Shown here piece after piece: positions 1 to 62,583 of a stretch of 64,000 bases of DNA. The notes beneath the pieces are model-generated. The model was not told the DNA's origin. It searched no databases and saw only the letters and a program-made list of their open reading frames with translations. The stretch's first letter is position 1. Each line of letters starts with the position of its first letter. The stretch lies in IMG/VR virus record IMGVR_UViG_3300035086_000100, positions 1 through 64,000 of that record. One strand, given 5' to 3'. The translations under genes and the position numbers were made by a program. The stretch is from a virus.

Positions 1-2
1 AG

Positions 3-23341: not shown

Positions 23342-23516
23342 GCGCGTGATCGAACGGGACCTCTGTCACCTGGCCGTCCGGGATCGCCCTGATCTCGGCG
23401 GCCATCTTCACGTACAGCCGCACGTTCCTGGCCGTTCTCGGCACGCCGGCGTCACGGAAATCCCTGCCCGCCGCCGCCGCCATCAGCATCTTGTGCGCAG
23501 CCTCGCCGCGTTCCAT
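23316..23516 (-). CDS. 66-aa protein, candidate immunity protein for the zeta domain
   Basis: TGATG coupling to the zeta-domain gene. Confidence 0.5.
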   Translation of the reverse strand: MERGEAAHKMLMAAAAGRDFRDAGVPRTARNVRLYVKMAAEIRAIPDGQVTEVPFDHALMPDVPPA

Positions 23517-34557: not shown

Positions 34558-35966
34558 GCCGTCTGGCTGTCGTCGCCCCATGCTTCCGTTACCTCATCCG
34601 GCAAGTACAGGTCCACCTTGCCGCATGCCTTGGCGGCGCGCTGACGGCTTCCCTTGCAGAAGACCGACACGTCCTGATGCGTCCGCCCGAGCGTTCGTGC
34701 GCCCTCGAACATACGGGGGGCGCGTATCGGGAGGCTGCCGACCGACGTCACGAGTACCGCGCCCGATGCGAACATGAGCCCGGCCGATGCTGCGGCGCGC
34801 ACCGTCATGGCCCGGAAGTCGACGAGGCGGCCGGTCTTATCGTCCCGCACGTCGCCAGTCACGATCACGGCGAAGCGGTCCGGGCGGAGGGCGGCAGCAA
34901 CGCCCTTCAGTATGTGCGTGTAGGTGTCCTCAAATGCAGCCTCGCCCATGCCCGACAGGTCGGCCGGATCGTCGCTGTACCGCTCCAGCCAGAGGTAGGG
35001 CGGGCAGGCGAGTATGAAGTCCGCACTATCCGGCATCAGATCGCTAACCCACTCGGCGGAATCGCCTATGGCCCACGTGACCGCCTCGCGGTTGATGAGC
35101 CTGCGGGCGGCGAAGTCGTCGGCCTGCTCCATGTTGGCCTTGACCTGATCGGCTGACAAGTCGTTGCCGATGTACCGACGCCCGGTCATTGCGGCCATGA
35201 GGCCACGCACGGAGCCGCCGGCGAACGGATCAATCACGGTACCCTCGCGCGGGCAGAACCAGCGGTAGGCGAGTTCGCATAGCACTGGATCGAAGATGCT
35301 TACCGTGCCGCCTTCGGTCGCATCTGTCTTCAGGCGGCTCGGCCCTCGATCGGCCGCCGCGCTGAAGTCAATCAGGCTCCCGTCGCGGCCGACCTCAGAC
35401 TTCAGCCCGAGATCAGCCCATGCCCTCTTGCGGTCTCGCCACCAGCCTTGCCGGGAGTCGAGTACGTCGAAGGGCGGGATCAGGAAACGGTCGGCCAGGG
35501 ACGGGCGATCCTCCGGGCCGTCACCATGACCCGAGCCCTCGCCGCCGCCGGATTCGTCCCGGCCCAGCAGATCGGCAATGTCATCCAGATCATGGACCGA
35601 GTAGCCGGTGCCGTCTAGATCGCCGTCTAGCGCGGCAAGCAGTTCCGCGAGGGCCTGGGTGTCATCCTCTGCCAAGTCCGCTAGGCGGTTGTCCGCTAGA
35701 TTCACTCTTCGCGCTTCGTCATCGGTGCAGGTGATGACCTCGCACCGCACCGTCTCGTGACCTTCGGCCTGAAGCGCGTCAGCGGTGTGATTCCCGGCCA
35801 GGATCACCAGGCCCGAGCCGGTGTCGCGGACGACGATGGCGCGGTACTGGCCGAGGCGGCGCACCGAGGAGCGGATCTCGCCGACGTTGCCGCGCCGGGC
35901 GTTGCCGGGGAACCGCGCCAGGTCCGCTACGGCTATGTCGCGTGTCCCCGCTGGAGTGACGGCCAC
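34554..35966 (-). CDS. ParB-like domain fused to a DNA amino-methyltransferase
   Basis: PGNARRG..ILAGNHT..LADNR; IDPFAGGSVRG; ACPPY. Confidence 0.85.
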   Translation of the reverse strand: MAVTPAGTRDIAVADLARFPGNARRGNVGEIRSSVRRLGQYRAIVVRDTGSGLVILAGNHTADALQAEGHETVRCEVITCTDDEARRVNLADNRLADLAEDDTQALAELLAALDGDLDGTGYSVHDLDDIADLLGRDESGGGEGSGHGDGPEDRPSLADRFLIPPFDVLDSRQGWWRDRKRAWADLGLKSEVGRDGSLIDFSAAADRGPSRLKTDATEGGTVSIFDPVLCELAYRWFCPREGTVIDPFAGGSVRGLMAAMTGRRYIGNDLSADQVKANMEQADDFAARRLINREAVTWAIGDSAEWVSDLMPDSADFILACPPYLWLERYSDDPADLSGMGEAAFEDTYTHILKGVAAALRPDRFAVIVTGDVRDDKTGRLVDFRAMTVRAAASAGLMFASGAVLVTSVGSLPIRAPRMFEGARTLGRTHQDVSVFCKGSRQRAAKACGKVDLYLPDEVTEAWGDDSQTA

Positions 35967-36104: not shown

Positions 36105-36410
36105 GTGAACATCACCCGCGAGCAGCTAGACGACATCCTCGACGCGGCCGAACTATACGAGGCCGACGACGACAGCTACGACAGCGACGGCCACGTCACC
36201 GTCACCAGTGACTATTCCGGTCGCGGCATGTACGGCGCGGCCTGCCTCGGTTTCACGGTTTCGCACCTTGCCGACGCATTCAAGATCGCCGTCGCGATGG
36301 GCGGCGTCCTCGGAGCCGACGAGGCCCGCGAGATCGCCGGCAAGGCCCGCAGCGACAGCATGGGCCGCGACGTGATCGTCTACTTCCCCGGAGTCACCCT
36401 CGATGCCTGA
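36105..36410 (+). CDS. Hypothetical acidic protein
   Basis: DYSGRGMYG..C.G..DSMGRDVIVYFP. Confidence 0.7.
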   Translation: MNITREQLDDILDAAELYEADDDSYDSDGHVTVTSDYSGRGMYGAACLGFTVSHLADAFKIAVAMGGVLGADEAREIAGKARSDSMGRDVIVYFPGVTLDA

Positions 36411-36633
36411 GCCGGTCATCTACCACGGCGCCGCAGAACTTGCGGCGCTGTTCGGCGTGAAGCCCGGAACAATCGACACGTGGCGGAAACGCTACCCGGA
36501 CTTCCCCGAGCCGGACGCCTTCACCGGGCGCGTAGCCGGGTGGCTGCCGTCCCGTGAGGCCGAGATGCGGGCGTGGCGCGCATCCCGGCCGGGGCGGGGC
36601 GCGGGCGGGGGCAGACCGCGCAGGGTGAGCTAG
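36403..36633 (+). CDS. AlpA/MerR-like HTH regulator
   Basis: GAAELAALFGVKPGTIDTWRKRYPDFPEP..RPGRG. Confidence 0.75.
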   Translation: MPEPVIYHGAAELAALFGVKPGTIDTWRKRYPDFPEPDAFTGRVAGWLPSREAEMRAWRASRPGRGAGGGRPRRVS

Positions 36634-39374: not shown

Positions 39375-39668
39375 CTATGCGGCCCTTGCCCGCCGTTTCA
39401 GTCCCTTACGCTGATTCGGGCTCAACCCCCCGTAGACACCCCAGCGCTCGTCATGCTCCAGCGCGAACTCAAGGCAGGGTGTTCTCACGGGACAAGCCCG
39501 GCATACCTGCTTGGCTGCCCTGGTCCCGCCGCCCTTTTCCGGATAGAAAATTTCGGGATCAGTCTCGGCGCACAGCGCGAGGTCTTGCCACGCCGGTCCC
39601 TGTGCGTTCACGTCCGGTCCGATGCCGGGATCGCCGGGCATGATCCTGATGATTTCGTCCATCGTCAT
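39375..39668 (-). CDS. whiB: WhiB family transcriptional regulator
   Basis: WQDLALCAETDPEIFYP..AKQVCRACPVRTPCLEFAL..GVYGGLS. Confidence 0.92.
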   Translation of the reverse strand: MTMDEIIRIMPGDPGIGPDVNAQGPAWQDLALCAETDPEIFYPEKGGGTRAAKQVCRACPVRTPCLEFALEHDERWGVYGGLSPNQRKGLKRRARAA

Positions 39669-39680
39669 TCCTTAACTTGC

Positions 39681-40346
39681 CTAGCGGACCGCGCTGTACC
39701 CGAGGAACGCCAGCAGGATCACCAGCGCGGGCGTGACGACCAGCACCTCAGGGCGAGTTGCCGTAGTGAAAGCAAACGGCTCGGGCAGCAGCCTGAACCG
39801 GTACCGGGAGAACGGCAGCAGCAGCGGGCAGCCTGAGTCCGTGCACATGTCCCCGGTGATGTGGGTGGCGCATCCCAGCCCCACCGCGAGCGCTACGAGG
39901 GACAGGCCGGTACCGGTGGCTGTCATCGCGACCGCCCCGCCGATAGCGAGAGCATCGGACCAGTGGCCGCCGAGCCGCAGCGCGATCAGCGCCCCGGCCA
40001 GGATGAGCGTCAGCAGCACGCCGAGCCCGATGCGTCCGGCAGTGTCGTGCCGGTACTGCACCGCCAGCCACGCCAGGACCGTGAACACCGCGACGCCGAT
40101 GAGCGTGTGGGTGCCGTGCCGGTGCCCGCCGGAGACCTTGCCTACCAGCCAGGCGAACGAGTGCGTCGCGAAGCCGAACGAGCGGGCCAGGGTGGAGTTC
40201 GGGTGATCGATGTCCGGGAGTACCGCCGCGCCGGCAGTCAGGCCGGCCATGAGCGCGGCCTGCGGGAGCGGCAGGTGCAGGACGTAGATGCTCGCTGCCG
40301 AGCCCGTCACCGCGCCGGAGAGCGCATGGGTATGCCCGAGGCACAT
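39681..40346 (-). CDS. Membrane-bound metal-dependent hydrolase (YdjM-like)
   Basis: HTHALSG, LPDIDHP, HRHGTHT, HITGD. Confidence 0.85.
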   Translation of the reverse strand: MCLGHTHALSGAVTGSAASIYVLHLPLPQAALMAGLTAGAAVLPDIDHPNSTLARSFGFATHSFAWLVGKVSGGHRHGTHTLIGVAVFTVLAWLAVQYRHDTAGRIGLGVLLTLILAGALIALRLGGHWSDALAIGGAVAMTATGTGLSLVALAVGLGCATHITGDMCTDSGCPLLLPFSRYRFRLLPEPFAFTTATRPEVLVVTPALVILLAFLGYSAVR

Positions 40347-40348
40347 GG

Positions 40349-40639
40349 CTAGCCGGCCGCGATAACGATTATGTCGGTCGGGTGGGCTGGCCAGCAGCCA
40401 TCAGGGTCATCGTCGGCCACGATGTACACGGTCCGCTCGCCGTTCTCGCCGTGCTCCTGGTAGTCCGCTTCCGTGATCACCGGCCAGCGGCCTGACCTGT
40501 CGGGCATGACTCCCATCCGGTGGCCGCCGACCAGGATCATCCCGGGCTTGGCCTCCCCTGCCGTGATCCGCTTCACCGGGAAACCGGGCTTCCCTGTCAT
40601 TCCGGCCGCCGTCCGCAGCCTGTTCGCGAGCCTGCTCAT
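40349..40639 (-). CDS. Hypothetical protein
   Basis: RBS GGGAG, follows the FtsK gene. Confidence 0.5.
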   Translation of the reverse strand: MSRLANRLRTAAGMTGKPGFPVKRITAGEAKPGMILVGGHRMGVMPDRSGRWPVITEADYQEHGENGERTVYIVADDDPDGCWPAHPTDIIVIAAG

Positions 40640-40652
40640 CGGTTTCTCCCCT

Positions 40653-42779
40653 TCAGTTCTCTGCGTTGACGAGCGACCGGTACCGGCCACCGCCGAGGTC
40701 TTCGGCCACGCCGACCGCTACCAGGTTGCGGAGCGCCTGATCAGCGGAGAACGCGTCCGTGTCGGCCATCTGCGACACGTCATACAGATCCATCACGCCC
40801 CTGCTGGCCAGCCATGCGGCCAGCAGAGGGACGGTGACGGGCTTCGACTCCGGCGGCTGCGGCAGGTCACCCGAGTCGTGTCGACGGGGCGCGGGCGCAT
40901 CCTGGGCGGGCGGCGACCAGCGCGGCCCGGCACCCGGTCCGCTGACGACACGGCGAAGCTCGGCGGTCACCGCGAACGGCAACTGGGAGTCCTTGACGCC
41001 ATCCGGCAGCGCGGCTATCGCCTCGATCAACTGCGAGCCGTCCAGCACCGACAGCCGGCCGCCCCACCCGAGCGGCCTGATGACCGCCTCGATCTCGGGG
41101 CCGAGTTCCACCACGTCGAGGGAGATCTTCTCGGCCAGTTCCCGCACGTCCGGGCCGTCCTCGCCCGGCTTGACGTACTCGGGCAGGTGCTTGGTCCGCA
41201 TCGTCGTAGACGGCCGGTTGTCCGTGCCGTGCAGAAAGCCAAGCCCGTGCACGCCGGGGGCCAGCGCCGACGTGTCGCCCTGCACGCCCAGCATGTGCTT
41301 GCTTAGCCCGTCCGTGCGGTGAGACAGGACATTGAACGCCTTCAGCAATTCGCGGATCGCCCGCAGGCCCAGTTCGGTGAGGTCCGGCATCTGGACGACC
41401 ACCTTGACTTTCACGCCGACCTTGCGGCCCTCCATGATGATCGCGGCGACCAGCGGAATCGCGATCTTCGACAGCACCGGGTCGCGGACGATCTTCGGCC
41501 ACTCGTCGATCGTCACGTCGATGATCGGGTTCTCCGGGGTCGGGTCGAACGAGCCCTTGCCGGTGTTGACCCTGCCCAGGTGGTCGGTCCAGGTCTGGTC
41601 GCCGAACCGGGCGGCGCGGTCGCACATGAGAGCGTGCGCCATGATGATCATCTGCACGCACGCCTCAAGGCCCCATGCCATCTGGTCGGCGAAGCCCTTC
41701 CAGACCGCGAGGGGCTGGCGCTGCGGGTCACCCATCCACAGGGCAATGATCCGCTTGCCGTCGACCTTCGCCTGGCCTTCCTCGCAGGCGATGACCAGCA
41801 GGGAGCCCGTCTTGCCGGATCCCTGCTGGCCGGCCAGGATCCCGGCGGCGACTCCCGACCCGGGTATGTGCAGCAGCCAGTGAGCGTCCTCGCCGTCCGC
41901 GTACCGCCCGATCCTGACCTTCCCTGTCGCCGGGTCATACGTCGACTTGCCGTCCCACTTGTCAGCCCGGTTCCACGCGTTCTTGCGGGTCAGAACCGTC
42001 ACGATCGCCCGCCGCTCCGACCGGTCCGCCGTGTACTCCACGGTGACCTGGTCCCTGCTCACGTCGAACTGGGCGGCGACCTTCGGGATCAGCGCGAACA
42101 AGTCGCCTGTCGTGGTTTCCGACCCGGCGGGCAGCTCGATTTCCAGCGCGAACCCGTCTTTCACGTCCCGCAGAGAATGGAACCGGGCGCCCTTGCACGG
42201 GCCTGACTGCCCGAACCTGGCACTGAACGCCGTCAGCCTCGGGTCAGGAGGAGGGGGAGCAGCCGGCGCGGGCGCGGGCGGCTCAGGCGGGGGCTCGGGC
42301 CGCTTGCGCGCCCGGTACAGGCCGGGAGCGGCGACGGCCAGGCCGCCGCCGAGCATCACGAGCTGGCCCCAGCCGTTCAGGACACCCGCAGCGGTCCCTG
42401 CCGCCATGGCGGTGCAGCACGCCGCGCACGACGCCCAGGCGGCCTGCCTGCGCGCCCGTGCCCGGCCCAGCCTGCGCGCCGACGCGCCGTCAGCGGCGAG
42501 CCGGGCGGAGATCCTCGCGTGTCGCACCGCCACCCTGACCGCAGCGACCGTGCACGGGGCAGCGACCAGGGCGTAACCCCACGGCCAGCCGATCGCGTGG
42601 CCGCCGGCAACGAGGCCGTCCGCGCCGGCTACCGCGGACAGCGAGGCCAGCGCCCGGTGCTGGCGCAGGTAGGCGGCCGGGGCGCTGCCCGGCGGGGTGA
42701 ACTCGGGCGGGTCCGGGTCCGGGCACGGCTTCGACACGGCGCTCTTGCCGCCGGCGGGCTTCTTCGCGGTCGGTGCCAT
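40653..42779 (-). CDS. FtsK/SpoIIIE-family conjugal DNA translocase (TraB-like)
   Basis: N-terminal TMs, IGRYADG, Walker A GQQGSGKT, Walker B VTIDEW, EGRKVGV..Q, C-terminal wHTH-like segment. Confidence 0.85.
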   Translation of the reverse strand: MAPTAKKPAGGKSAVSKPCPDPDPPEFTPPGSAPAAYLRQHRALASLSAVAGADGLVAGGHAIGWPWGYALVAAPCTVAAVRVAVRHARISARLAADGASARRLGRARARRQAAWASCAACCTAMAAGTAAGVLNGWGQLVMLGGGLAVAAPGLYRARKRPEPPPEPPAPAPAAPPPPDPRLTAFSARFGQSGPCKGARFHSLRDVKDGFALEIELPAGSETTTGDLFALIPKVAAQFDVSRDQVTVEYTADRSERRAIVTVLTRKNAWNRADKWDGKSTYDPATGKVRIGRYADGEDAHWLLHIPGSGVAAGILAGQQGSGKTGSLLVIACEEGQAKVDGKRIIALWMGDPQRQPLAVWKGFADQMAWGLEACVQMIIMAHALMCDRAARFGDQTWTDHLGRVNTGKGSFDPTPENPIIDVTIDEWPKIVRDPVLSKIAIPLVAAIIMEGRKVGVKVKVVVQMPDLTELGLRAIRELLKAFNVLSHRTDGLSKHMLGVQGDTSALAPGVHGLGFLHGTDNRPSTTMRTKHLPEYVKPGEDGPDVRELAEKISLDVVELGPEIEAVIRPLGWGGRLSVLDGSQLIEAIAALPDGVKDSQLPFAVTAELRRVVSGPGAGPRWSPPAQDAPAPRRHDSGDLPQPPESKPVTVPLLAAWLASRGVMDLYDVSQMADTDAFSADQALRNLVAVGVAEDLGGGRYRSLVNAEN

Positions 42780-42874
42780 GGTTCCGGGTCTCCTGCCGTC
42801 CTCTTGCGGTTCGGGCCTGATGGCTTCCGCGTCCCCCGCCCGGCTTCGATCCTGCCGGGCGGGGGACGCGCACG

Positions 42875-43198
42875 TCACCGGCCAGTGCGGGCCTCGTCGG
42901 CGTACTGCTTGTGCGGGGTGTTCTCCGGCCCTCCGGCCGCGGCGACAGCCTCGCCGACCGGGACCTGGGTGTCGTTGACGGTGTCGGTCATCCGGATCCC
43001 GGACGCGACAAGGTCGGTGATCTCGGCCTGGAACACGCGGATCGCGGCGGCCTGCGACAGGTCGCCGTTGTCGGCCTCCACCTGGGCGGCCATCGTGTCG
43101 AGCAGGTCACGCAACTGCTGAAGCCGGGTAATGCAGGCGCCGGCCCAGGCAAGCCAGGCGGCATGAGTGTTCGTCTCGCCGATCAGCGGGGCAGTCAT
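42875..43198 (-). CDS. 107-aa helical transfer-associated protein
   Basis: RBS GAGGGAG; similar to the C-terminus of the upstream gene. Confidence 0.65.
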   Translation of the reverse strand: MTAPLIGETNTHAAWLAWAGACITRLQQLRDLLDTMAAQVEADNGDLSQAAAIRVFQAEITDLVASGIRMTDTVNDTQVPVGEAVAAAGGPENTPHKQYADEARTGR

Positions 43199-43223
43199 TG
43201 GTTCTCCCTCAGGTAGTGGTCGT

Positions 43224-44654
43224 CTACATCTCGGCGTAGTAATCCGGGTCGGCCACCTCGTCGGAGCCGCCGGCGCCCTGGACCGCGTCCACGTACGGGT
43301 CCTGGTGCTGGTTGACTTCCTCGACCAGGTTCCGGCCGTGGGACATCACGGCGGTGACCTGGTCAAGCCAGGCGGTCACCGCCGCCATGTGCTCCCGGCC
43401 GGCGCTCTTCGCGCTCAGGCACTTCAGCGTGTTCTCCGCCGACTGGGCGATGCCTTCGAGCGCGGCGTCGATCGCGCTGGTCAGCCCTTCCCAGTCGGCC
43501 TGGGTGTGCAGTTCACCGTCAGGCGCGCACGTCATCGGGTCTCCTTGCGGTTGCGGCGGTGCAGCCTGACCGGGCTGCGTCGGCCCTGCCGGGGCATCCG
43601 GCGGGGAATTCTGGGCGGCAGCCTCCTGCGCGATCCGGCCGGCTTCGGCGGCCAGGAACTCGGCGTCGCCAGCGGTCAGCGGCATCTCGTTGCCGTCCGC
43701 GTCCACGGGGGTTCCCGCGGCGGCCAGTTCGGCTGGCTGGCGTTCCCTGACTGCCCCGTCCGGGTAGCGGGCCGGGATGCGGGTGATGACGCCGTCCTTG
43801 CTGCTCGTGCCGCCGTACCCGCAGTACAGGCAGATGTCGGCGTTGGTGGCATTCACCACGTACCAGGTGCTTCTGGGCATGAGCTGGCGGTTGCAGCCCG
43901 GCTCGGAGCAGATCCTGACCGGCAGTTTCCATCGGGCCGGGTCTGCGCCCTCGCGGCTGACTGGCAGGCCCTGGTAGTCCGGGCACAGCAGGCAGCCCGG
44001 ATTCACGCACGCGAAGCCGGCCAGCGGCTTGCCGCAGCGGACGCAGCGCGGCGCCGGGACTGCCCCGGGTTCCGGGTCGCCCACGATCTCCGCGTCGGGA
44101 ATCTCGTCGTCGGGGGGCAAGTCGCCGTCCCGCATGGCGGGCGGGGCTTCCTCCGCATGCTCTGCGACGGCCGGACGGCTGGCACCCGGACGGCATGAGC
44201 CGCACAGCCCGTCTTTCAGGGCCGTGACAGCGGCGATGCCGCCGCACTGGCCGCACACCCCGATCCGCAGCAGCCGGGGGCGCTCGCCGTCCCGCAGGCG
44301 CTTCCTGGCCTCGCCGTAGGCGTACTTCCCGCCCCGCCATGCCGCTCCGGCGATCCGGCGCACGATCCCGGCGCCGTTGCGGAACAGCCTGCGGCGGCGC
44401 ATCGCCGCGCGAACGGCCCTGGCGGTCCTCATCGCCGCCCACGCCCAGAACGCCGGGTAGAAGGCGCCGCGCTTGCGGTCCTCTTCAAGCCGTTTCGCGA
44501 GCGCCGCGCCCGCCTTGGTTCCCTTGTCCTTCAGGGCCTGGAGTACCGCCGCGCGGACCGTGCGGCCCTCGGCCACGGCCTGCCAGATCCCGGCCTTGCC
44601 GGCGGCGTGCACGACCAGCCACGCCACCAGCATCGGCATGAGGACGACCATCAT
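43224..44654 (-). CDS. Transfer-associated protein (N-terminal TM, Zn fingers, C-terminal helical domain)
   Basis: Hydrophobic start, several CxxC pairs; internal RBS and ATG at 43535. Confidence 0.6.
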   Translation of the reverse strand: MMVVLMPMLVAWLVVHAAGKAGIWQAVAEGRTVRAAVLQALKDKGTKAGAALAKRLEEDRKRGAFYPAFWAWAAMRTARAVRAAMRRRRLFRNGAGIVRRIAGAAWRGGKYAYGEARKRLRDGERPRLLRIGVCGQCGGIAAVTALKDGLCGSCRPGASRPAVAEHAEEAPPAMRDGDLPPDDEIPDAEIVGDPEPGAVPAPRCVRCGKPLAGFACVNPGCLLCPDYQGLPVSREGADPARWKLPVRICSEPGCNRQLMPRSTWYVVNATNADICLYCGYGGTSSKDGVITRIPARYPDGAVRERQPAELAAAGTPVDADGNEMPLTAGDAEFLAAEAGRIAQEAAAQNSPPDAPAGPTQPGQAAPPQPQGDPMTCAPDGELHTQADWEGLTSAIDAALEGIAQSAENTLKCLSAKSAGREHMAAVTAWLDQVTAVMSHGRNLVEEVNQHQDPYVDAVQGAGGSDEVADPDYYAEM

Positions 44655-44667
44655 CTGAAAGGCTCCC

Positions 44668-45105
44668 TTACTGGCCGGTGATACGGGACACGACCGCACC
44701 GGCAATGTGGTCGAAGAAGCCGAGCACCCCGGCGGCCTTGTGCCCGAGCGTCAGCAGCAGCAGCGCCGGGAGGAGCAGCCCGAACGTGGGCTGCAGGATC
44801 CGGTTCGGGGTTCCGCCGAACTTCTTCACGCCGTCGTGGATGAACTCGACGGTGATCAGGCCGGTGATGCCGATCTCGATCCAGTGCGCCACGCCGGTCA
44901 GGCCCGCGATGTAGCCGCCGAGCAGGCCGGCCAGGGGGATGCCCACGGCGAAGGCGAGCCAGCCGATGATCCGCGCCGACTTCTTCTTGCGGTGCATTCC
45001 GAGGGCGATGCCGCCGAGCAGGGCGGCCCCTCCGATTGACAGGCCGGCGATCTGGCCGCCGGTCAGGCCGGCCGGGGTGACCCCGGCGGCCAGGATGATG
45101 TTCAT
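44668..45105 (-). CDS. Spd-like membrane protein (about 4 TM)
   Basis: Hydrophobic segments; context upstream of the TraB-like gene. Confidence 0.6.
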   Translation of the reverse strand: MNIILAAGVTPAGLTGGQIAGLSIGGAALLGGIALGMHRKKKSARIIGWLAFAVGIPLAGLLGGYIAGLTGVAHWIEIGITGLITVEFIHDGVKKFGGTPNRILQPTFGLLLPALLLLTLGHKAAGVLGFFDHIAGAVVSRITGQ

Positions 45106-45132
45106 TGCGATGGTTCCTTTCGGGGGGGATCG

Positions 45133-45702
45133 TTACCTGAGGTGGAAGGCCAGCCAGGCAATGCCGATGAAGGCCGCCGCCCCGCCGAGCCGGATCGGGC
45201 GGGCGAACAGCCACGCCAGCAGGTAGCCGGCGGTCACGCCGAGCCGTCCGACCGTCAGGTGGTAGCAGTTGCCGGCCGGGCCGGAGTACTTGCCGTGATG
45301 GGTGCACGCCCGGGCTGCGTTTCGGCACGGCTCGCAGCACGGCACCCAGGCCCGGGATTTGCGGTAGGCGTCATGGACGGCCAGTGACTCGGGCGAGGCG
45401 TGCCACGGGCCGCGCGGGTTGGTGACGGTCTTCCGCGCCGTCTGCCAGCACATGGCCGCCAGGTGCAGGGCGACCGTGCCGCCGCCGATCTTCAGGACCA
45501 CGCCGTCAGGCACGTCAGCGTCAGGCAGCGCCAGTGCGGCGCCAGGGTCACCGTCAGGCGCACCGTCAGGCGGAGTGTCATGCCAGCCGTCAGGCGGAGC
45601 GTCATGCCGGCGGTGGTGCCCTGGCCCGCCGCAGGACCCGTCAGCCTCGCCCGGGTCACGAAGGTCGAACTCGAAGTCAAGGTCGGGCAGCGAACTGGTC
45701 AT
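45133..45702 (-). CDS. Spd-like membrane protein with PPDG repeats
   Basis: C-terminal TMs; ATGA overlap. Confidence 0.55.
   Translation of the reverse strand: MTSSLPDLDFEFDLRDPGEADGSCGGPGHHRRHDAPPDGWHDTPPDGAPDGDPGAALALPDADVPDGVVLKIGGGTVALHLAAMCWQTARKTVTNPRGPWHASPESLAVHDAYRKSRAWVPCCEPCRNAARACTHHGKYSGPAGNCYHLTVGRLGVTAGYLLAWLFARPIRLGGAAAFIGIAWLAFHLR
45504..45646 (+). repeat. Cluster of CGTCAGGC 8-mers
   Basis: Exact copies at 45504, 45519, 45552, 45564, 45588, plus variants. Confidence 0.85.
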
Positions 45703-46005
45703 GACACCCTCGCGAGTTTCTCGGCAAGCTGGGCTAGCTGGTCGGTGAGCTGGCGGACAAGGCCCGGTCCCCGGCGGGGGATCTTCATCGCGTCGGCGGC
45801 CACGGCGCGAGCCAGCGCGGTCGCCTCCGCCAGCGCCTTCATCTCCTCGCCGGCGGACTGCGCGGCGGTCATGCGCTCCCTGTACCGGGCGCGCGCGGCA
45901 GCGGTAGTCACCGGGTACCGCCTCGCGCGCGCGGGCACGCGCAGGTGCATGCCTGCATGTGCATCCCCGCGTTGGGGGTTCCGGCAGGGCTCAGTTCCGG
46001 GCTGG

Positions 46006-46899
46006 TCACCTGTCCGCTCCTTCCGTCTCGCGTGCCGTCTCATCCAGTTCGGGCAGCCACTTGGACCGCATCTGCCGGCCCAGGCTGCTGGACGCCGAGA
46101 GCCCGGCCGCGCGGACCAGGTCGGCACCGGACGGCGCGGGCCTGCCCGCCTGGATCTCGGTGTCCCAGTAGGTGCGCATCACCTGGGCGGCGCCGTTGTT
46201 GCTCCCGGGCGGACCCGGGGGGATGCACTGCCCGGCGGTGATCGCCAGCTCCCGCGCGTGGCCGCCGGCGACCGGCAGGCGGCTGACGGGGCTGACGGAC
46301 TGGCTGGCGGCCCTGACGATTTCCGCCTGACGCTCCGCGATGGCGGCGCGACGCCCGGCCGCCTGACGCTGACGCTCTTCTTCCGCCTGACGGTCTTCTT
46401 CCGCCTGACGGTCGGCGGCCTGACGCTGACGCTCAAGCTCCGCCTGACGCTCGGCCTCCGCCGCTATCGCCTGACGCTCGGCCAGGCCCTTGCGGGCCGC
46501 CTCGGCTGCCCGCCGCTCCATGAGGGAGATCGCCAGCATGAGGAACAAGCCGGGGATCGCGGCCGTGATGTACCCCCACGCCGACGACTGCGCCCCGGCG
46601 AGGTTCCCGGCCAGGGTCAGGCCGATCCCGAAGATCATCACGATGGTGGGCCACGACATCCAGCCGCGGCGCTTGCGCCCGGTCCTGATGTCGCGCTGCC
46701 GCTCGCGGGCAGCCATCAGCACCCCGAGGTCCACGCACACGGCGATCAGCGGCGCCAGGACGCCGGGCTGGCCGTGGCCCGATGCCAGCCGCGTCCAGTG
46801 GTCGAACGAGCCGCCGAACGCGATCAGCGCGAGGGCGAGCGGGATGCCGTTGTCGGCGACCGCCCGCCCGAAGCCGTTCCCGTCCCCGGCGGCGCTCAC
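46006..46899 (-). CDS. DUF2637 (SpdA-like) membrane protein with C-terminal HTH-like segment
   Basis: AFGGSFDHW..LA..G..LIAVCVD..LTLAGN..AIP. Confidence 0.75.
   Translation of the reverse strand: MSAAGDGNGFGRAVADNGIPLALALIAFGGSFDHWTRLASGHGQPGVLAPLIAVCVDLGVLMAARERQRDIRTGRKRRGWMSWPTIVMIFGIGLTLAGNLAGAQSSAWGYITAAIPGLFLMLAISLMERRAAEAARKGLAERQAIAAEAERQAELERQRQAADRQAEEDRQAEEERQRQAAGRRAAIAERQAEIVRAASQSVSPVSRLPVAGGHARELAITAGQCIPPGPPGSNNGAAQVMRTYWDTEIQAGRPAPSGADLVRAAGLSASSSLGRQMRSKWLPELDETARETEGADR
46281..46476 (+). repeat. Cluster of GCCTGACG 8-mers (reverse complement of the 45.5 kb cluster)
   Basis: Exact copies at 46325, 46361, 46385, 46403, 46418, 46442, 46469, plus five CTGACG-core variants. 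Confidence 0.85.
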
Positions 46900-48868
46900 G
46901 ACGGCACCGCCCCGGGTGACCGGTCGCCTATGCGCCAGTTCTCGTCCCATGCCTTATCCATCGCGGACGGGTCGTACGTCGTCCCGGCCGCGATCGAGTG
47001 CATCGCCGCAGAGGGCGCACGGCGCTGGTAGTACTCGTCGTCAAAGTCGTGGAAGTGCGACCCGTGAATGATCCGGCCGTCGTCGGCGACGCCCAGCAGG
47101 TCATATTCGGCCTGCGGACCGCCGCACGCATCGCAGGCGGGCTCAAGTTCGGCGAGGCTGTCAGCCTCGGCAACTGCGGCAGCGAGCGCAGCCCGGCACT
47201 GGCGGCACAACGTCCCGGCACTGGCGGGCTCGCCGCACCAGCAGCAGTAGCGCCAGCGGTTCCGGATACGGGCGATGACGCTGAAGTCGCTGCGCCAGCG
47301 GCACTTCGGGCAGGCCAGCAGATCCAGGGGGTCAGGGTCGCCCGGCTCGGCGATCAGCGAGGCGCCGCACAGCGCGCGGGGGACCTTGATCCGCAGCCGG
47401 TCGAGCAGGCCCTGCCAGAAGCCGGCGACGTGGAGGAACGCGCTGTCCGGCGACTGCGCGAGCGGCTCGGTGGCTTCTACCTGCCAGCCCTGGTCGCAGA
47501 TCCAGAAACGTGCATCATCCGGATCCGGGTAGGCATCGCCGAGCGGGGACAGTGTGGCCATGCGCCAGGACGCCTGCACCCCGGACGGGGGCACGTGACG
47601 GGGGTCGGCGGCGATGATCCGCATCGTGCCGTCGCCCAGGATGCCCCAGATCACCGCGCCGGGCTCCATGTCCCGGGTGAGCATGTAGTAGCTGGTCATG
47701 ACGCCTCCCGGTTTTCGTCGCGCTTGGCGACCGCAGTGCCGGAGCAGGCGGGGCAGGCGGACAGGGTCAGTCCCCGCACGCCGGTCCACTCGCAGTCACC
47801 GCAGTTCCAGCGGGCAAGCGGCCTGCGCTTGGCGTTGCCGTAGGTCCGGGCGATCATGACGCCTCCCGGCTGTCGCGCTGAGCGAGATGCGCGTCCCATG
47901 CGCGGTCCGTCTCGCGCATCCACTCAGCGGCCGAACCGTTCCTCGCGTGCCAGCCCTCCCAGTACTGGGAGCCGCCGTCCGCGTGGTCGGCGTGGCGCTG
48001 CTCCTCGTCGGCCAGGGCCTGCTCTATCTCGGCCTCGGTCGGCTCACGGGCGCTCATCGGGAGCCTCCGTGGTCAGGGCAGTTGCCGTGCCAGTCGCACG
48101 ACTCGTGGTCGGTCTTGACCTCGCCGAACGAGCCGGTCGTGCCTGCCCCTCCGTCGCGTGAGCCAAGCCGGTGGTTACCCTCCGACCAGCGCTCGCCTTC
48201 GCTGCTTTCCAGCCAGGCGATGACCTCGGGGTCGTTCATGACGCCACCCGCCCGTCATAGGCGGTCTCGCAGGCGGCTGCGTAAGCGGCGGCTGCGGCGC
48301 CGATGCCGTTCGGGCACTGGTCGTCGGTCGTGACGACCCTGACTTCGCCTAGGTAGCGCTCCACCAGTGCGAAGCGTGCGGCAGGCCGGTCAAGGCGCAT
48401 CGCCTCGGTAGCCGGCTCGACCGTCAGGACCGGGACGGCGGGGAAGGCCCGGATGTTCACCGGACTAGCGACAGGATGCACTGCGAGCCGCTGGCGACCC
48501 GGTCCCGGTCCGCCAGCATCCTGCGTCCCATGATCCGGATGTCCCGCCGGAACGCCGCGATCATCGCGTCCTGCTCGGAGATCACGGCCAGCAGTTGCGT
48601 CCTTGTCATCTTGGTGACGGGGACGGGGGGTACTATCTCCACTTGAGTCAGTCCTTACTAGGGGATGCGGACTCGGATCAGCAGGGTCACCGTTTGCGGC
48701 GGTGGCCCTGCTTGCGTTCAGGGGGAAGTTCGCGGTCCCGCAGGAGTGGCCGTCAGCGGACCAGTAGACGGTCCCGCAGTTGCCGCAGACCGAAGTCATG
48801 CTCAAGCCGGCCGACCGGGGGGCGCAGGAGCGGCAGAGCGGCGGGATGGCTATCGGGGAGAAGTTCAT
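46896..48868 (-). other. Chain of small translationally coupled hypothetical genes (46896-47699, 47696-47857, 47854-48057, 48054-48239, 48457-48642 and others)
   Basis: Repeated GGAGGCGTCATGA-type RBS/start/stop overlaps. Confidence 0.55.
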
Positions 48869-49094
48869 GACTGGCCGCCCTGAGGCCATGCCGTCATGGA
48901 AGTGACGAAAGCGCCCGGCACCCGCCACTGAACGCCGACCCGCTTGGCGGGCCACGCGTCCTTGTCGGCTAGGTGCAGGCGCTTGTAAGTGGCGACGGAG
49001 ATCTTGAGCCGGTCACAGGCGATCTTGATCGGCAGCAACTCGCCATCGGTGCCCGTCAACTTCCGGACATCCGCAGAGGTGCCGTTGGTGCTCA
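48865..49094 (-). CDS. Excisionase-like HTH protein
   Basis: LLPIKIACDRLKISVATYKR..PAKRVGVQWRVP. Confidence 0.65.
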
Positions 49095-49132
49095 ACGCTG
49101 CTCCCTGTTGGCTGCAAGTACCATTCGGTTTC

Positions 49133-49173
49133 CTACCTAGGCCAATAGTAGGTAGTGCTAGCCAAGTCGTCAA
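49133..49173 (-). promoter_or_regulatory. Promoter of the transfer operon with overlapping inverted repeat
   Basis: TTGACG-17 bp-TACTAT on the minus strand; CTACCTA-N9-TAGGTAG at 49133-49155. Confidence 0.7.
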
Positions 49174-49267
49174 GGCTTGTTCATCAGTGAAAACCGGTGA
49201 ACTCGGGCGTAGCGGGTGGGGTTATGCCGCAGGAACGGAATCGGCCTAGGCAGATACCATGATTCGC

Positions 49268-50155
49268 ATGCAACCGATAGACCCCGACGACAAGCGGCAT
49301 CCGCACGTCCAGATCGCGGCCTCGATCCGCGCGGCGATCCTCACGGGAGAACTTGAGCCAGGCTCGCAACTTGACACCGGACAGGAACTGGCGGCCTTCT
49401 TCGGCGTGTCCCGCATGACCGTGGCTTCGGCGATCCGCACGCTCCGCGACGAGGGCTTCGTCCGCTCCCGCATGGGCAGCGGCGTGTTCGTCCGCGACCT
49501 GGCCAGCCTCCCCGCACCCGAAGGCGAGGAGCATCCGCTGGCCGGGACCGCGATGTTCCTGTTCGAGATAGGCCAGCTCAAGCACCAGCCCCGGTCGGGC
49601 TGGCTGCTGCTGGGCATCCCGCACCCGGAGAGCGTCGCCGAGCACTCATTCCGGGTCGGCGTCATCGGCCTGATCCTCGCGGCGATGGACGGTGCCGACG
49701 TCGGGCGCACTGCCGCCCTGGGCCTGATGCACGACGCGCACGAAACCCGGATCGGCGACGTTCCCTCAGTCGGCCGCGCCTACGTCACCACGGCGGACCC
49801 CGAAGCCATCACGGCCCACCAGGTCGCGAAGATGCCCGACGAGGCATCGAAGGCCGTGCAGGAACTCACCGCCGAGTACGAGGCGAACGTGACCCGCGAG
49901 GCGCGGCTGGCCCACGACGCGGACAAGATCGAGACGCTGCTGCAGGCCACCGAGTACCAGGCGCAGGGACATGACACCGAGACGTGGCGGGAGAACTCGG
50001 TAGCGGCACTGCGCACCGAACCAGGCCAGCGGCTGGCCCAGGCCATAGGCGCAGGCGACTCGCGGTGGTGGGCGCCATTCAATGCGTCCTACCTCGAATT
50101 GCATGCCAGTGCGCGCAACCGCACTCAGGCAAGCCGGCCCGACGAGGAGGGATGA
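49268..50155 (+). CDS. GntR-family HTH fused to an HD-domain hydrolase (YfbR-like)
   Basis: QIAASIRAAI..LAAFFGVSRMTV..GSGVFV; RSGW..ESVAEHS..HD..E..GD..HDADK. Confidence 0.88.
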   Translation: MQPIDPDDKRHPHVQIAASIRAAILTGELEPGSQLDTGQELAAFFGVSRMTVASAIRTLRDEGFVRSRMGSGVFVRDLASLPAPEGEEHPLAGTAMFLFEIGQLKHQPRSGWLLLGIPHPESVAEHSFRVGVIGLILAAMDGADVGRTAALGLMHDAHETRIGDVPSVGRAYVTTADPEAITAHQVAKMPDEASKAVQELTAEYEANVTREARLAHDADKIETLLQATEYQAQGHDTETWRENSVAALRTEPGQRLAQAIGAGDSRWWAPFNASYLELHASARNRTQASRPDEEG

Positions 50156-50925
50156 TGCGCGCCGCGATGGCCACCGAGCCCGGCGACGCGGACGTCCCCA
50201 ACGAGGACTGGTTCGGCATTGCCCCGGAAGCCGTCGTCGTGCTCGACGGCGTGACGGTACGGGCAGGCATCGAGTCAGGCTGCGGCCACGGAACGCCCTG
50301 GTACGTCCGGCGGCTCGGCGGCATGCTCATGGACGGCATCATCGCGGGCGGGCTTCCGCTCGCCGATGCGCTCGCGGGCGGCATCAGCGCCGTAGCCGCG
50401 CAGCATGCCGGGACCTGTGACCTGGGGACAGTCGGCGCACCTTCAGCCGCCGTGGGCATTGTGAGGCTCACGGGCGGCCGGGCCGACTGGCTGGTCCTTG
50501 CCGATATCAGCGTCGTTCTCGGCGAGCCCGGCGGGGTACGGGTGATCTCCGACAAGCGGGTAGACGACTCGGTGGCGGGGATCAGCGTCACCGGCCCGGC
50601 TGTTGGCCAGCGGATCGGCGAGGCCCGCACCGCGCACCGCAACCGGCCCGGCGGCTACTGGGTGGCCGCAGCCGATCCCGAGGCGGCGGCGCACGCGGTA
50701 ACCGGGTCGGCGCCGCTGGGGGACCTGCACCGGCTCGCGGTGATGACGGACGGCGCCTCGCGGCTGGCCGACATGTTCGGGATGCCGTGGCCTGACGTGC
50801 TGGCAATAGACCCCGGCGACCTGATCGCGATGGTCCGCAAGCACGAGGCGGACGACGCCGGACGGGTGCGCTACCCGCGCTTCAAGGTCAGCGACGACGC
50901 GACCGCCGTAGCGGTTTCGCCCTGA
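50152..50925 (+). CDS. PP2C-like phosphatase
   Basis: NED, VLDG, MTDG, DDAT motifs. Confidence 0.8.
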   Translation: MMRAAMATEPGDADVPNEDWFGIAPEAVVVLDGVTVRAGIESGCGHGTPWYVRRLGGMLMDGIIAGGLPLADALAGGISAVAAQHAGTCDLGTVGAPSAAVGIVRLTGGRADWLVLADISVVLGEPGGVRVISDKRVDDSVAGISVTGPAVGQRIGEARTAHRNRPGGYWVAAADPEAAAHAVTGSAPLGDLHRLAVMTDGASRLADMFGMPWPDVLAIDPGDLIAMVRKHEADDAGRVRYPRFKVSDDATAVAVSP

Positions 50926-50942
50926 GGGAATTGGGAGTCCGG

Positions 50943-51362
50943 ATGCCCAGAGCTGACCGTCCCGCCCCGCCGTACGTCCAGATCGCCGGCTACTACCGCG
51001 ACGAGATCGCCAGCGGGCAGCGCCGGGCGGGCGAACGCCTTCCGTCTATCGCCGCGATAGCCGAAGGCTGGGCAGTGGCGGCGGCCACTGCGGCGAAGGC
51101 AATCGGCCTGCTCTGCGACGAGGGGCTGATCTCCACGTCGCCACAGGGAAGCTTCGTCCTGCCGCACGGCACGGAAGGCAAGATCGACGCCGCGATCACG
51201 GCGGCTGACGCGGCGCTGAGCGCTATCCGCCTCCTGGCAGACCCCCGGGAGAAAGCCGAAGCCGCCGGGCGGCTCGTGAGCGGACTGCGCGCCCGTTCAG
51301 ATGAGGCCGACCGTATCCGGCATGCCGGCCGCGATGACGAGACCGGTGAAAACCCGGCCTGA
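50943..51362 (+). CDS. GntR-family HTH regulator
   Basis: PPYVQIAGYYRDEI..GERLPS..GSFV. Confidence 0.82.
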   Translation: MPRADRPAPPYVQIAGYYRDEIASGQRRAGERLPSIAAIAEGWAVAAATAAKAIGLLCDEGLISTSPQGSFVLPHGTEGKIDAAITAADAALSAIRLLADPREKAEAAGRLVSGLRARSDEADRIRHAGRDDETGENPA

Positions 51363-54614: not shown

Positions 54615-55169
54615 CGGGCGAAGCTGCCTAGCACGCGAAAAAGCACCCCCGGCCCCTCTGCGCCGTGCCCGCTGTTACCAGGCGCGGAACGAGGGAACCG
54701 GGGGTGCTTCCGGTAGTGGTGCGGCGGTGGCAAATCGTCGCGCCAGCCAGCGTAGCAAGACGGCGGATGACGGGAAGGGTGATCCGGTAGCCGCCCGGGA
54801 CGCGGCTGGCGGGCGGGCGGCGCTCTTGCTACCGTGACCCTGCAGCGCAGCGAGAAAAGGATCAGCCCGCTACCGCGAACTCCCCGATCGCGGCGGCGGG
54901 CTGATCCGCTTCGCCGCCCCGGTGCAGGCCCGGAACCGGGGGATAAGGGGTTCCTGCCCCGCGGAGGGACGGCTTCCGCCCGGAGGACCGGAGCACGGGG
55001 GTGACTCCGCCTGGCCGGGCTGGATCCACTATCGCACGGCGTTGGCGGGCACGCAGCGATTGGCGGGCGAAACGGCGTGGCTGGCGCCAGAATGTCCCGC
55101 GCTCAGGTACCTGTGCAAGGGCATCTGCCGACGTATCGGCAGAGATGCCTGCACAGATACGATGCCGCG

Positions 55170-56558
55170 ATGAGTGAGGCACTGAGCGCCGCCGTGTACT
55201 GCCGCATGTCACTGGCCGTCATGGGCGACACGACGAAGGTCGAGGACCAGGAGCGGATCTGCCGGGAACTGTGCGAGCGGCTTGGCTGGCGGGTGCATGA
55301 CGTGTACGCCGACAACAACAAGTCGGCGTGGCAGAAGAACCGCAAGCGCCCGGCCTGGGACCGGATGCTCGCCGACGTCGACGCGGGCCTGATCGGCGCG
55401 ATCGTGGTCTACCACGGCGACCGGCTGGTGCGGCGGCCTCAGGATCTCGCCAAACTCATCGAGCTGGCCGACAGCAAGGGCCTGCGGCTGGCCTCGCCGA
55501 CCGGCACGCGCAACCTCGACAACGGCGACGACCGGTTCATCGTGTGGATCGAGGCCGCCGCGCAGGAGCGCTCCTCCTATGACACGTCGCGGCGCAAGAT
55601 CACCCAGTACGAGCGGATGCGGCGTGAAGGCAAGGTGCGCCCTGGCGGCAGGGGCGGCCGGTCCTACGGCTTCCGGGGCGACAACCTGACGATGATCGAG
55701 TCGGAGGCCGCGAACCTGCGGGAGGCCGCCGCCCGGATCCTGGGCGGGGAGGGCGCCGGGGCGGTCGCCGCCGACTTCACCGCGCGGGGCATCGTGACCC
55801 AGACCGGGATCCCGTTCACCTACGCCACCTTGCCGCAGCTCCTCAAGCGCCCGCGGTACGCGGGCCTGATGCCGGACGGGGTACAGCAGGCGGCATGGGA
55901 GCCGGTGCTGGAGCGGTCGCAGTGGGAGGCGCTGCGCGCGGTGCTCGGAAACCGGTCGGCCGGGTACGGGTACGCGGTGAACTCGCGCCGCTACCTGCTG
56001 TCCGGGATCGCCGAGTGCGGGTTCGGGGACTGCGGGGCGCCGCTGCAGATCCGGCACACCCGGGTCCGCGGCGACGGGCCGCCGAACGTCGGCTACGCCT
56101 GCATCAGGCCGGGCTGCCGCAAGACCTACCGGTCGCGGGTGATGCTCGACGCCTACGTGAGCCAGCGGGTGGTCTCGCTGCTGAACCAGGAAGGCAACCC
56201 GGAGCCGGCGGCGCCGCGGACGCCGGGGCTGGCCGAGCGGTACGCGGCGGCGGACGCGCAGCGCCGCGAGATCGAGGAGGTTCTCGCCGACCCGTCGCGG
56301 GGGTCGGTCCCGGCGCTGCTGAAGCGGCTGGACCGGGTGAACGCGACGCTGGCGGAACTGAGGGACCTGTCGGCGGGCGACGCCCGGTCCCGGCTCAGGA
56401 CCCGGTACGCGGGCCTGACCCTGGAGGAGTTCAGGGGCCTGCCGCTGGCGGTGCGCCGCTCGCTGGTGGCCGCCTACTTCCGGGTCGTCGTCCTGCCGTC
56501 GTCGAAGAAAGGGCCGGGGTTCCGCACCGAGGACGTCCGGATGATCCCGCGCGGCTGA
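55170..56558 (+). CDS. int: Large serine integrase
   Basis: YCRMS, DRLVR, recombinase domain, LLSGIAEC..CG Zn ribbon, coiled coil. Confidence 0.95.
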   Translation: MSEALSAAVYCRMSLAVMGDTTKVEDQERICRELCERLGWRVHDVYADNNKSAWQKNRKRPAWDRMLADVDAGLIGAIVVYHGDRLVRRPQDLAKLIELADSKGLRLASPTGTRNLDNGDDRFIVWIEAAAQERSSYDTSRRKITQYERMRREGKVRPGGRGGRSYGFRGDNLTMIESEAANLREAAARILGGEGAGAVAADFTARGIVTQTGIPFTYATLPQLLKRPRYAGLMPDGVQQAAWEPVLERSQWEALRAVLGNRSAGYGYAVNSRRYLLSGIAECGFGDCGAPLQIRHTRVRGDGPPNVGYACIRPGCRKTYRSRVMLDAYVSQRVVSLLNQEGNPEPAAPRTPGLAERYAAADAQRREIEEVLADPSRGSVPALLKRLDRVNATLAELRDLSAGDARSRLRTRYAGLTLEEFRGLPLAVRRSLVAAYFRVVVLPSSKKGPGFRTEDVRMIPRG

Positions 56559-62582: not shown

Positions 62583-62583
62583 C

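Follow-up and report, generated by a model that had tools for sequence, protein, structure and literature searches.

A putative plasmid-type DNA transfer module in the genome of a temperate tailed actinophage

Gene content of the operon and its TraB-like ATPase

We analysed bases 1-64000 (64,000 nucleotides, hereafter the window) of IMGVR_UViG_3300035086_000100, a single 99,059-bp virus record of the IMG/VR database, in which an operon for a TraB-like ATPase and a set of small, membrane, and Cys-rich proteins resembles the DNA transfer modules of actinomycete plasmids. The G+C content of the window was ~69%, and because plain lists of open reading frames (ORFs) are useless at this value, genes were called by third-position G+C (GC3). 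The module operon occupies the minus strand from 49.17 to 39.38 kb, divergent from a gene encoding a GntR-HD regulator. Its genes are ordered as four small ORFs, a 297-aa protein, a DUF2637 protein, proteins of 189, 145, 493, and 107 aa, the TraB-like protein, a 113-aa ORF, a YdjM-family protein, and a WhiB-family regulator.

The TraB-like ORF (40653-42878, minus strand) is 741 aa long, and the database gene call begins at M34 (40653-42779, 708 aa), which is likely the true start of the protein (position 42779). The product is predicted to be an FtsK-fold translocase of double-stranded DNA (dsDNA), with N-terminal transmembrane (TM) helices, a motor domain, and a winged helix-turn-helix (wHTH) at the C-terminus. 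Its Walker A (GQQGSGKTG) and Walker B (IDEW) motifs are both conserved across the clade to which it belongs. Hydrophobic helices lie at residues ~66-190, and an H-H-H-beta-beta unit lies at residues 683-735 (block mean pLDDT ~73-87). In an AlphaFold (AF2) model built from 19 homologues, the mean pLDDT of 10-residue blocks between residues 210 and 500 was mostly 72-94, with dips to 57-69 at residues ~320-360 and 430-440. The top Foldseek hits were the pCW3 coupling protein TcpA and FtsK motor domains (E ~1e-8, TM-score by target 0.45-0.58), followed by EccC and EssC.

NCBIfam plasmid_TraB was the only family that matched the TraB-like protein (E 1e-11; E 8e-14 in a second run), and searches of Pfam and PHROGs gave no match. 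Three results argue against a firm assignment. The plasmid_TraB match was weak (45 bits, with a cut-off of 800), the same model also matched FtsK of the control genomes, and Pfam FtsK_SpoIIIE (PF01580) had zero matches at E <= 10 in all frames of the record. The plasmid_TraB model is therefore supportive and cannot alone tell TraB from FtsK. A tblastn search with the protein found zero matches in 50,697 phage records and matched 30 actinomycete plasmids, including those of Streptomyces and Kitasatospora, at 27-30% identity, some of the matched proteins being annotated as transfer proteins. On a linear Kitasatospora plasmid that also encodes ParA, a GntR gene is divergent from small ORFs, which are followed by large membrane-region genes and the TraB-like gene. 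From sequence and predicted fold, we concluded that the ATPase belongs, as a distant member, to the TraB branch of the FtsK-HerA superfamily and has the domain architecture of TraB. Some members of its clade have an extra C-terminal FtsK-gamma wHTH (PF09397) past the conserved wHTH (L006:9458-12355, plus strand; P0014, P0018, and P0019).

A promoter-like site and the palindrome CTACCTA..TAGGTAG lie together at 49133-49173 (minus strand), at the start of the operon. The sigma-70-like site (49173-49145, minus strand; TTGACG-17-TACTAT) is a consensus match only, found once with 0.1 expected, and the palindrome that overlaps it was read by eye from the sequence. The two form a candidate promoter and operator of the module operon. 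The divergent gene (49259-50155, plus strand) encodes a fusion of a GntR wHTH (Pfam GntR, E 1.3e-17) with a YfbR-like HD domain (Pfam HD_3, E 2.2e-31). It is kept divergent upstream of the module in related locus L040 (65% identity), and its HD part is kept in the provirus G002 (46%); HTH-only, weaker matches were found upstream of the module in L006, L041, and L052. By its sequence and position, GntR-HD is a candidate Kor/TraR-type repressor of the module. Its effector part is an HD/YfbR-like 5'-deoxynucleotidase domain instead of the usual UTRA or FCD domain, and GntR-HD may be a nucleotide-sensing Kor protein. A second small GntR-family protein of 143 aa is encoded at 50931-51362 (plus strand; Pfam GntR, E 1.5e-8).

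The four leader ORFs of 102, 61, 61, and 67 aa (47854-49173, minus strand; GC3 gene calls) had no Pfam match, and the first has a putative excisionase/HTH-like look. The next gene encodes the 297-aa protein with 12 Cys residues (46896-47789, minus strand), for which family searches gave no match. The DUF2637 protein (46006-46950, minus strand) has 3-4 TM segments and a charged C-terminal part of ERQAE repeats. Its Pfam match (E 7.6e-7) exceeds the cut-off, and it has syntenic homologues of 36-53% identity in L006, L040-L042, L047, L048, and the phage record G003. The 189-aa protein (45133-45702, minus strand), with an acidic N-terminus of PDG repeats, a Cys cluster, and two TM-like segments, has syntenic homologues in every related locus. 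The 145-aa membrane protein (44668-45105, minus strand; three TM-like segments) has homologues in L006, G002, PhiNon1, and metagenome loci.

The 493-aa protein (43224-44705, minus strand), with an N-terminal TM segment and 16 Cys residues, had no family match, no informative Atlas or structural neighbour, and no tblastn match in the plasmid collection. Its C-terminal domain is related to the 107-aa helical protein (42875-43198, minus strand), as both match the same stretch of locus L052; the 107-aa protein has homologues of 54-66% identity in six related loci and of 28% identity in L052. On the 3' side of the TraB-like gene lie the 113-aa ORF (40349-40690, minus strand), without a match in family searches, and genes for a YdjM-family membrane-bound metal-dependent hydrolase (39681-40346, minus strand; Pfam YdjM, E 2.4e-24) and the WhiB-family regulator (39375-39668, minus strand; Pfam Whib, E 8.7e-23). 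A YdjM gene also follows the TraB gene in L006 and L041.

Much of this anatomy had been proposed in a first-pass annotation made from the sequence, which gave its items in right-to-left order. Its divergent GntR regulator, its FtsK/TraB-like translocase, and its two helical proteins were all recovered, the latter as the 107-aa protein and the related C-terminus of the 493-aa protein. The promoter with operator that it described was located as well, at the level of a consensus match. It had also described the genes as continuing in the same direction into whiB, late regulators, and the terminase gene. This orientation was confirmed, with HTH proteins encoded on the same strand between the module and the terminase gene. 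However, two small plus-strand genes (36105-36633) interrupt the minus-strand run, so the stretch from module to terminase is not one unbroken operon.

The annotation had further named a DUF2637/Spd-like membrane gene set. Its membrane part stood, comprising the DUF2637 protein and the TM-rich proteins of 189, 145, and 493 aa, whereas the Spd label is positional. By analogy with Streptomyces plasmids, the membrane and Cys-rich proteins may be functional analogues of Spd proteins. Two points tell against this analogy: its basis is position and membrane character only, and no DUF2637 was detected in phiC31, pZL12, or the Kitasatospora plasmid counterpart. A tblastn search of the phage collection with the DUF2637 protein also found no match, and the idea that DUF2637 is the SpdB2 family noted in phiC31 was therefore unsupported.

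Two clustered 8-mer arrays as a candidate clt site

The 8-mer GCCTGACG occurs 23 times in the window, with 6.0 +/- 2.4 copies expected, and is the most clustered 8-mer in the whole 99-kb record. Twelve of the 23 copies fall in two arrays of opposite orientation, ~730 bp apart. Array A (45504-45595, minus strand) consists of five exact copies inside the 189-aa gene and is inverted relative to array B (46325-46476, plus strand), which consists of seven exact copies inside the DUF2637 gene, antisense to its coding strand. Array A is read as G-CCT-GAC-G and yields PDG repeats, and the complement of GCCTGACG in array B is read as CGT-CAG-GC and yields RQA repeats. CCT makes up 6 of the 8 Pro codons in array A, compared with 9% genome-wide (p 1e-5), and CGT makes up 10 of the 11 Arg codons in array B, compared with 5.6% genome-wide (p 3e-12). 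The location of the arrays in rare codons makes them a plausible clt site. The clt of Streptomyces plasmids consists of direct 8-bp repeats that are read by the TraB wHTH (PMC4447253).

The scattered copies of GCCTGACG are all on the coding strand, in the frame xGC-CTG-ACG, which is composed of common codons. Since common codons explain these copies, only the two arrays are informative, and a genome-wide polarity like that of FtsK orienting polar sequences (KOPS) was rejected, the skew being a codon-usage effect. The possibility that the arrays are a pac site was judged unlikely, since the arrays accompany the TraB module in relatives with different packaging genes.

Similar arrangements were found in related loci. 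L006 and L042, whose TraB proteins are ~50% identical to that of the window, have the same 8-mer core in the same inverted two-array arrangement. At the corresponding place, the clustered 8-mers of more distant relatives are different ones: GTCCGAGA occurs eight times in both orientations inside one gene of G002, and L052, L048, and L007 have GTCCGGGA, GCCGGCCA, and ACCAGGTC, respectively. A tyrosine recombinase gene follows the TraB gene in L040 and in the prophage of Spirillospora (L007:13891-14550), and in L040 a stretch of 50 bp just 5' of that gene holds six copies of ACGCGTCG (L040:11965-12015).

It should be noted that some observations speak against a clt function. Both arrays sit in repetitive peptide regions, and tandem duplication therefore accounts for part of the clustering. 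Furthermore, the recognition helix of the wHTH showed no clean covariation with the 8-mer; for example, L040 and L041 have the same helix and different top k-mers. However, tandem duplication can account for repeats inside a single array but not for the recurrence of one 8-mer in two genes, in two frames and two orientations. Given this recurrence, the arrays of the relatives, and the clt precedent, we regard the two arrays as a good candidate for a clt site.

The carrier phage and its relatives

The late genes run leftward on the minus strand and encode the terminase, portal, a zeta-toxin-domain protein, capsid protein, and tape measure. The large terminase (30423-33257, minus strand; 944 aa, profile match) contains a LAGLIDADG homing-endonuclease/intein insert at residues ~343-402, N-terminal to its RNaseH-like nuclease domain. 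The Mu-type portal (26887-28407, minus strand; profile match) has no close relative, its best matches being Streptomyces phages (37% identity) and a Saccharopolyspora plasmid (43% identity). A 424-aa protein with a zeta-toxin/AAA_33 kinase domain is encoded within the head-gene region, in the interval between portal and capsid genes (23516-24790, minus strand). The tape measure (2252-6055, minus strand; 1267 aa) has profile matches to Hint and NlpC/P60 domains, the Hint/intein-splicing matches lying immediately N-terminal to the NlpC/P60 peptidase domain. A 470-aa protein encoded 5' of the terminase (34554-35966, minus strand) has a weak ParB_N-like N-terminus and a weak DNA-methylase match, and its N-terminus shares 65% identity with a G003 protein.

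On the plus strand from 49.3 kb, the GntR-HD gene is followed by the second GntR gene, a large serine integrase gene (55077-56558, plus strand; Pfam Resolvase, E 1.2e-21; Recombinase, E 1.8e-8), and a gene for a Gp3-like recombination directionality factor (RDF; 62203-63687, plus strand; Pfam Gp3-like, E 1.2e-32). The integrase gene lies ~6 kb past the regulator, among other phage early genes. The record outside the window encodes methylases, an HNH protein, a tyrosine recombinase (86484-87476), and a GH25 lysin. From the late genes, the integrase and RDF, and the lysin gene, the record is a temperate tailed phage, roughly 100 kb in size, of a filamentous actinobacterium. The phage also encodes a short protein with the central domain of DnaN, the beta-clamp (G000:C1:72070-72672; L001:8070-8672), and a full dnaN gene (L025:13476-14684) lies a few kb 3' of the TraB-like gene on the Kitasatospora plasmid that carries the counterpart transfer module.

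The block from DUF2637 through the 189-, 145-, 493-, and 107-aa proteins to TraB was found, mostly complete, in eight loci at 30-66% identity, namely a contig of a Streptosporangiaceae metagenome-assembled genome and seven metagenome contigs. Most of the block was also present in three other phage genomes. The first, G003, an IMG/VR record of 159.8 kb, has a portal of the HK97 type and a TraB gene that is split over the contig ends; it has the large and small terminase subunits (TerL and TerS) and two genes 3' of the module in common with the phage of the window. The second, G002, is a 104.8-kb provirus with an SPP1-type portal. The third is a roughly 95-kb prophage in a Spirillospora chromosome, which is collinear with G002 over 41 proteins and has kept the module. 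The portals of the module-bearing phages thus differ, being of the Mu type in the phage studied here, the SPP1 type in G002, and the HK97 type in G003.

In a quick maximum-likelihood (ML) tree, the only phylogeny made, the TraB proteins of these phages and the metagenome sequences formed one clade (SH-aLRT 98). Its sister group comprised plasmid proteins, including that of the Kitasatospora plasmid, together with PhiNon1 and two genomes, and the Tra protein of pZL12 was a remote outgroup. The TraB of the window (P0001) had a terminal branch of 0.89, about threefold that of its nearest relatives (0.2-0.4), which may be partly due to the over-long N-terminal start used. The clade is rare among sequenced genomes: in a sample of 401 Actinomycetes genomes, one close match (G001, the sample centre) and three distant matches were found. 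Judging by these sequences, the module is a mosaic unit that several phage lineages have long retained.

Interpretation and comparison with known systems

We consider it fairly probable that the interval is a plasmid-type dsDNA transfer module that is integral to, and vertically conserved in, a temperate tailed actinophage of ~100 kb. The identity of the module is well supported. That the module serves the virion-independent spread of the phage genome, taking conjugative and intramycelial spread together, is by analogy the use towards which we lean. We infer that regulation, DNA binding, pumping, and transfer would proceed as follows. The GntR-HD repressor would control the divergent promoter of the operon, which would yield the membrane and Cys-rich Spd analogues and a hexameric, FtsK-fold TraB-like pump anchored in the membrane through its N-terminus. 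The C-terminal wHTH would load the pump on the two inverted GCCTGACG arrays, a clt-like site within two module genes. The pump would then carry the circular DNA of the phage, double-stranded and without processing, across contacts between hyphae and through septal cross-walls; this circle would arise either from excision by the serine integrase and RDF or from infection. In this way the phage genome would spread through and between mycelia without virions, beside ordinary infection.

The strongest alternative, which we nevertheless consider unlikely, is that the module acts only within one mycelium, moving phage DNA, whether replicating or excised, through septal cross-walls in infection or lysogeny, or ensuring that spore compartments inherit the genome, with no conjugation between separate mycelia. 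In pSVH1, Spd proteins and TraB drive intramycelial spreading, and actinophage SpdB2 homologues have been proposed to aid the spread of phage DNA (PMC4447253); moreover, the module of this phage sits just 5' of WhiB and the late genes. However, the plasmid homologues of the pump are annotated as transfer proteins, and conjugal transfer of pZL12 is reported to need its major tra gene and two neighbouring genes (PMC3583192). Sequence features alone do not separate intramycelial from intermycelial transfer.

A still less probable reading is that the FtsK-like protein, with the proteins encoded next to it and the WhiB- and BldC-like regulators of the phage, manipulates host development or cell division, or that it and these neighbours act in exclusion or defence, without transporting phage DNA. 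The ftsK, parB, ssgA, and whiB genes of actinophages are generally read as tools for manipulating host development (PMC10117723, PMC13587820), and WhiB is encoded directly 3' of the module. However, the sole family matched by the pump is a TraB model rather than Pfam FtsK_SpoIIIE, and its companions (membrane proteins in a fixed set, a regulator of the GntR type, and repeat arrays in cis) are those of plasmid transfer modules.

Whether the module is instead a nested element was judged from its flanks and from the genes it lacks. The flanks had zero direct repeats of >= 16 nt, and the three shared 14-mers are as expected by chance (2.45); no tRNA gene was found in the window. The interval contains no tyrosine integrase, no replication protein (Rep) of an actinomycete integrative and conjugative element (AICE), and no Nudix Pif that we could see; the absence of the first two had been reported in the first-pass annotation and was upheld, the serine integrase lying outside the interval. 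A Prim-Pol was not found in the record, although the DUF3631 search control matched nowhere and that search is uninformative. ParA (AAA_31) was not found in the record either, though not every small ORF was scanned, and ParB_N gave a single 18-bit match, in a methylase-like protein. An AICE is made up of Int, Rep, and Tra, with Tra defined by the PF01580 domain (Ghinet et al. 2011, PMC3218068); here, Tra lacks a PF01580 match at E <= 10 in all frames, and there is neither an adjacent Rep, RepSA not having been searched for, nor a terminal Int with flanking att sites. A nested AICE bounded by att repeats, the outcome that would have spoken against the annotation, was accordingly rejected, given the missing att-like repeats, tRNA, and adjacent Rep/Int and the conserved linkage to phage genes. 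The module is therefore not a recent, self-contained insertion. The status of plasmid-prophage was likewise unsupported, ParA being undetected and the ParB_N match reaching only 18 bits. With a serine integrase and RDF and without detectable partition genes, the element looks integrative, like its Spirillospora relative. The module has nonetheless been found with three unrelated head modules and therefore moves between genomes over evolutionary time. A mobile AICE or plasmid fragment nested in a prophage, or a conjugative plasmid carrying a prophage, is the least probable reading of all: this occurrence with three head modules, a module G+C of ~72% compared with 67-70%, and the two recombinases of the record favour it, whereas the lack of flanking repeats, tRNA, Prim-Pol, and ParA, the conserved module position in two diverged phage pairs, and the G002 serine integrase, at the provirus end ~80 kb away from the module, do not.

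Other observations count against the preferred reading of an integral transfer module that moves a circular phage genome. IMG/VR classes the record as linear, with a CheckV completeness of 89%, and the module of G002 and its head genes occupy opposite strands, so that co-transcription with late genes is not a conserved feature. In another collection, a contig with the same protein is 101,606 bp long. When the record was joined end to end in silico, the tail gene cut off at position 1 on the minus strand stopped three codons on, at a hairpin at the far end (window 1-3; G000:C1:99030-99059), which may be due to chance. The hybrid of phage and conjugative element proposed in the first-pass annotation is thus partly supported: a kor/spd/traB-like module integral to a tailed phage was found, apart from the Spd label, and spread by two routes can reasonably be inferred from the anatomy, the comparisons, and the negative att result.

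Gene flow by phage infection and gene flow by conjugation are usually considered apart from each other. One pump is enough, in mycelial actinomycetes, to transfer a complete double-stranded replicon. With a pump of this kind, a prophage could spread while its host survives, evade resistance that is based on receptors, and mobilise DNA of the chromosome. Because the pump is missed by PF01580-based detection of AICEs and other integrative and conjugative elements, such elements would be under-counted. We tentatively propose, with slightly less than even confidence, that an unrecognised TraB-like clade, carried in a module of ~10 genes with intragenic, inverted 8-mer loading arrays and kept by several lineages of large, integrative tailed actinophages whose head types differ, marks dual-route elements, which would spread as virions and as naked dsDNA. 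If this is true, part of the prophage count in mycelial actinomycetes would be self-conjugative. The idea is testable, since a related prophage is present in Spirillospora sp. NPDC048911 (contig 4, ~565-658 kb), a strain that is in culture.

The closest parallel in architecture is pZL12/phiZL12 (GQ919031, 90.4 kb), which, like the present element on its single 99-kb contig, unites the structural genes of a tailed phage and a tra locus in one replicon. Zhong et al. 2010 (J Bacteriol 192:3747) reportedly found that pZL12 forms infectious virions and returns to the plasmid state, and the title of their paper names its replication and its transfer as well as its cycle between plasmid and lytic phage. 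In both elements, GntR is divergent from an operon with small and membrane proteins, which in pZL12 encodes a membrane protein, a 766-aa protein, and a 725-aa FtsK/SpoIIIE-like Tra protein; the terminase, portal, head, and tail genes follow tra on the same strand. However, pZL12 encodes ParA and ParB and replicates as a plasmid, whereas the phage studied here has a serine integrase and RDF and no detected ParA, and the plasmid maintenance genes of the pZL12 type (ParA, ParB, and RepA) were not found among the ORFs scanned in its record, apart from the 18-bit ParB_N match. Only seven of ~150 proteins matched, weakly, including the TerL C-terminus, the GntR HTH, and a C5-methylase, with the GntR HTH as the only match in the module, and the similarity between the two Tra proteins is not significant (BLASTP E ~1). 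Close kinship to pZL12 was therefore rejected, and the near absence of common sequence, Tra included, indicates that TraB-type pumps and tailed phages have been combined independently at least twice. What pZL12 showed to be possible for a plasmid-prophage, the present family suggests for integrative prophages in several lineages. pZL12 was called a singleton phage in 2020 (PMC7157519). Five Streptomyces plasmids of 88-102 kb in PLSDB (AP023409.1, NZ_CP109332.1, NZ_CP108705.1, NZ_CP109440.1, and NZ_CP109172.1) have Tra proteins 77-90% identical to pZL12.71c, and pZL12 thus now has relatives, filed as plain plasmids.

Among tailed phages, Thoma et al. (2015) suggested that SpdB2 homologues on the actinophages phiC31 and VWB assist the spreading of phage DNA (PMC4447253). 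The phiC31 record has no annotated FtsK-fold or TraB-like pump, and no search for one was made. PhiNon1 (NZ_LT559120), a plasmid-phage element from Nonomuraea gerenzanensis for which circular and integrated forms are both reported (PMC5431353), has the same gene order as the module described here, with DUF2637, small genes, a 396-aa protein, and a 654-aa TraB-like protein. Its TraB-like protein is 27% identical to that of the window and falls in the sister group with the plasmid proteins, and the element differs in its size of 59 kb and its integration at a tRNA-Val gene. In a term search, TraB had 0 occurrences in the main text of the PhiNon1 paper (PMC5431353), and our search of the literature on phage-plasmids, TraB, and Streptomyces found no description of this TraB clade or module.

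The TraB/clt/Spd/TraR systems of the Streptomyces plasmids pSVH1 and pIJ101 and the AICE pSAM2 likewise combine a GntR-type regulator adjoining the operon, small and membrane proteins whose translation is coupled, an FtsK-like pump that is anchored in the membrane and has a wHTH at its C-terminus, and clustered 8-bp repeats, here the candidate clt. In contrast to these systems, the pump described here belongs to a separate clade missed by PF01580, the regulator has an HD domain, the repeats form two inverted arrays in coding genes 5' of traB, and the carrier is a tailed phage. The concept of such an element is not new, as pZL12/phiZL12, for which spread both as virions and as naked DNA was reported in 2010, combines this architecture with a Tra that is unrelated and a transfer locus described for it. 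New here are the TraB clade that PF01580 misses, a backbone that is integrative and not that of a plasmid, and the location of the repeat arrays inside genes. The description that fits the element best is that of a conjugative plasmid-phage, or of a hybrid between phage and AICE.

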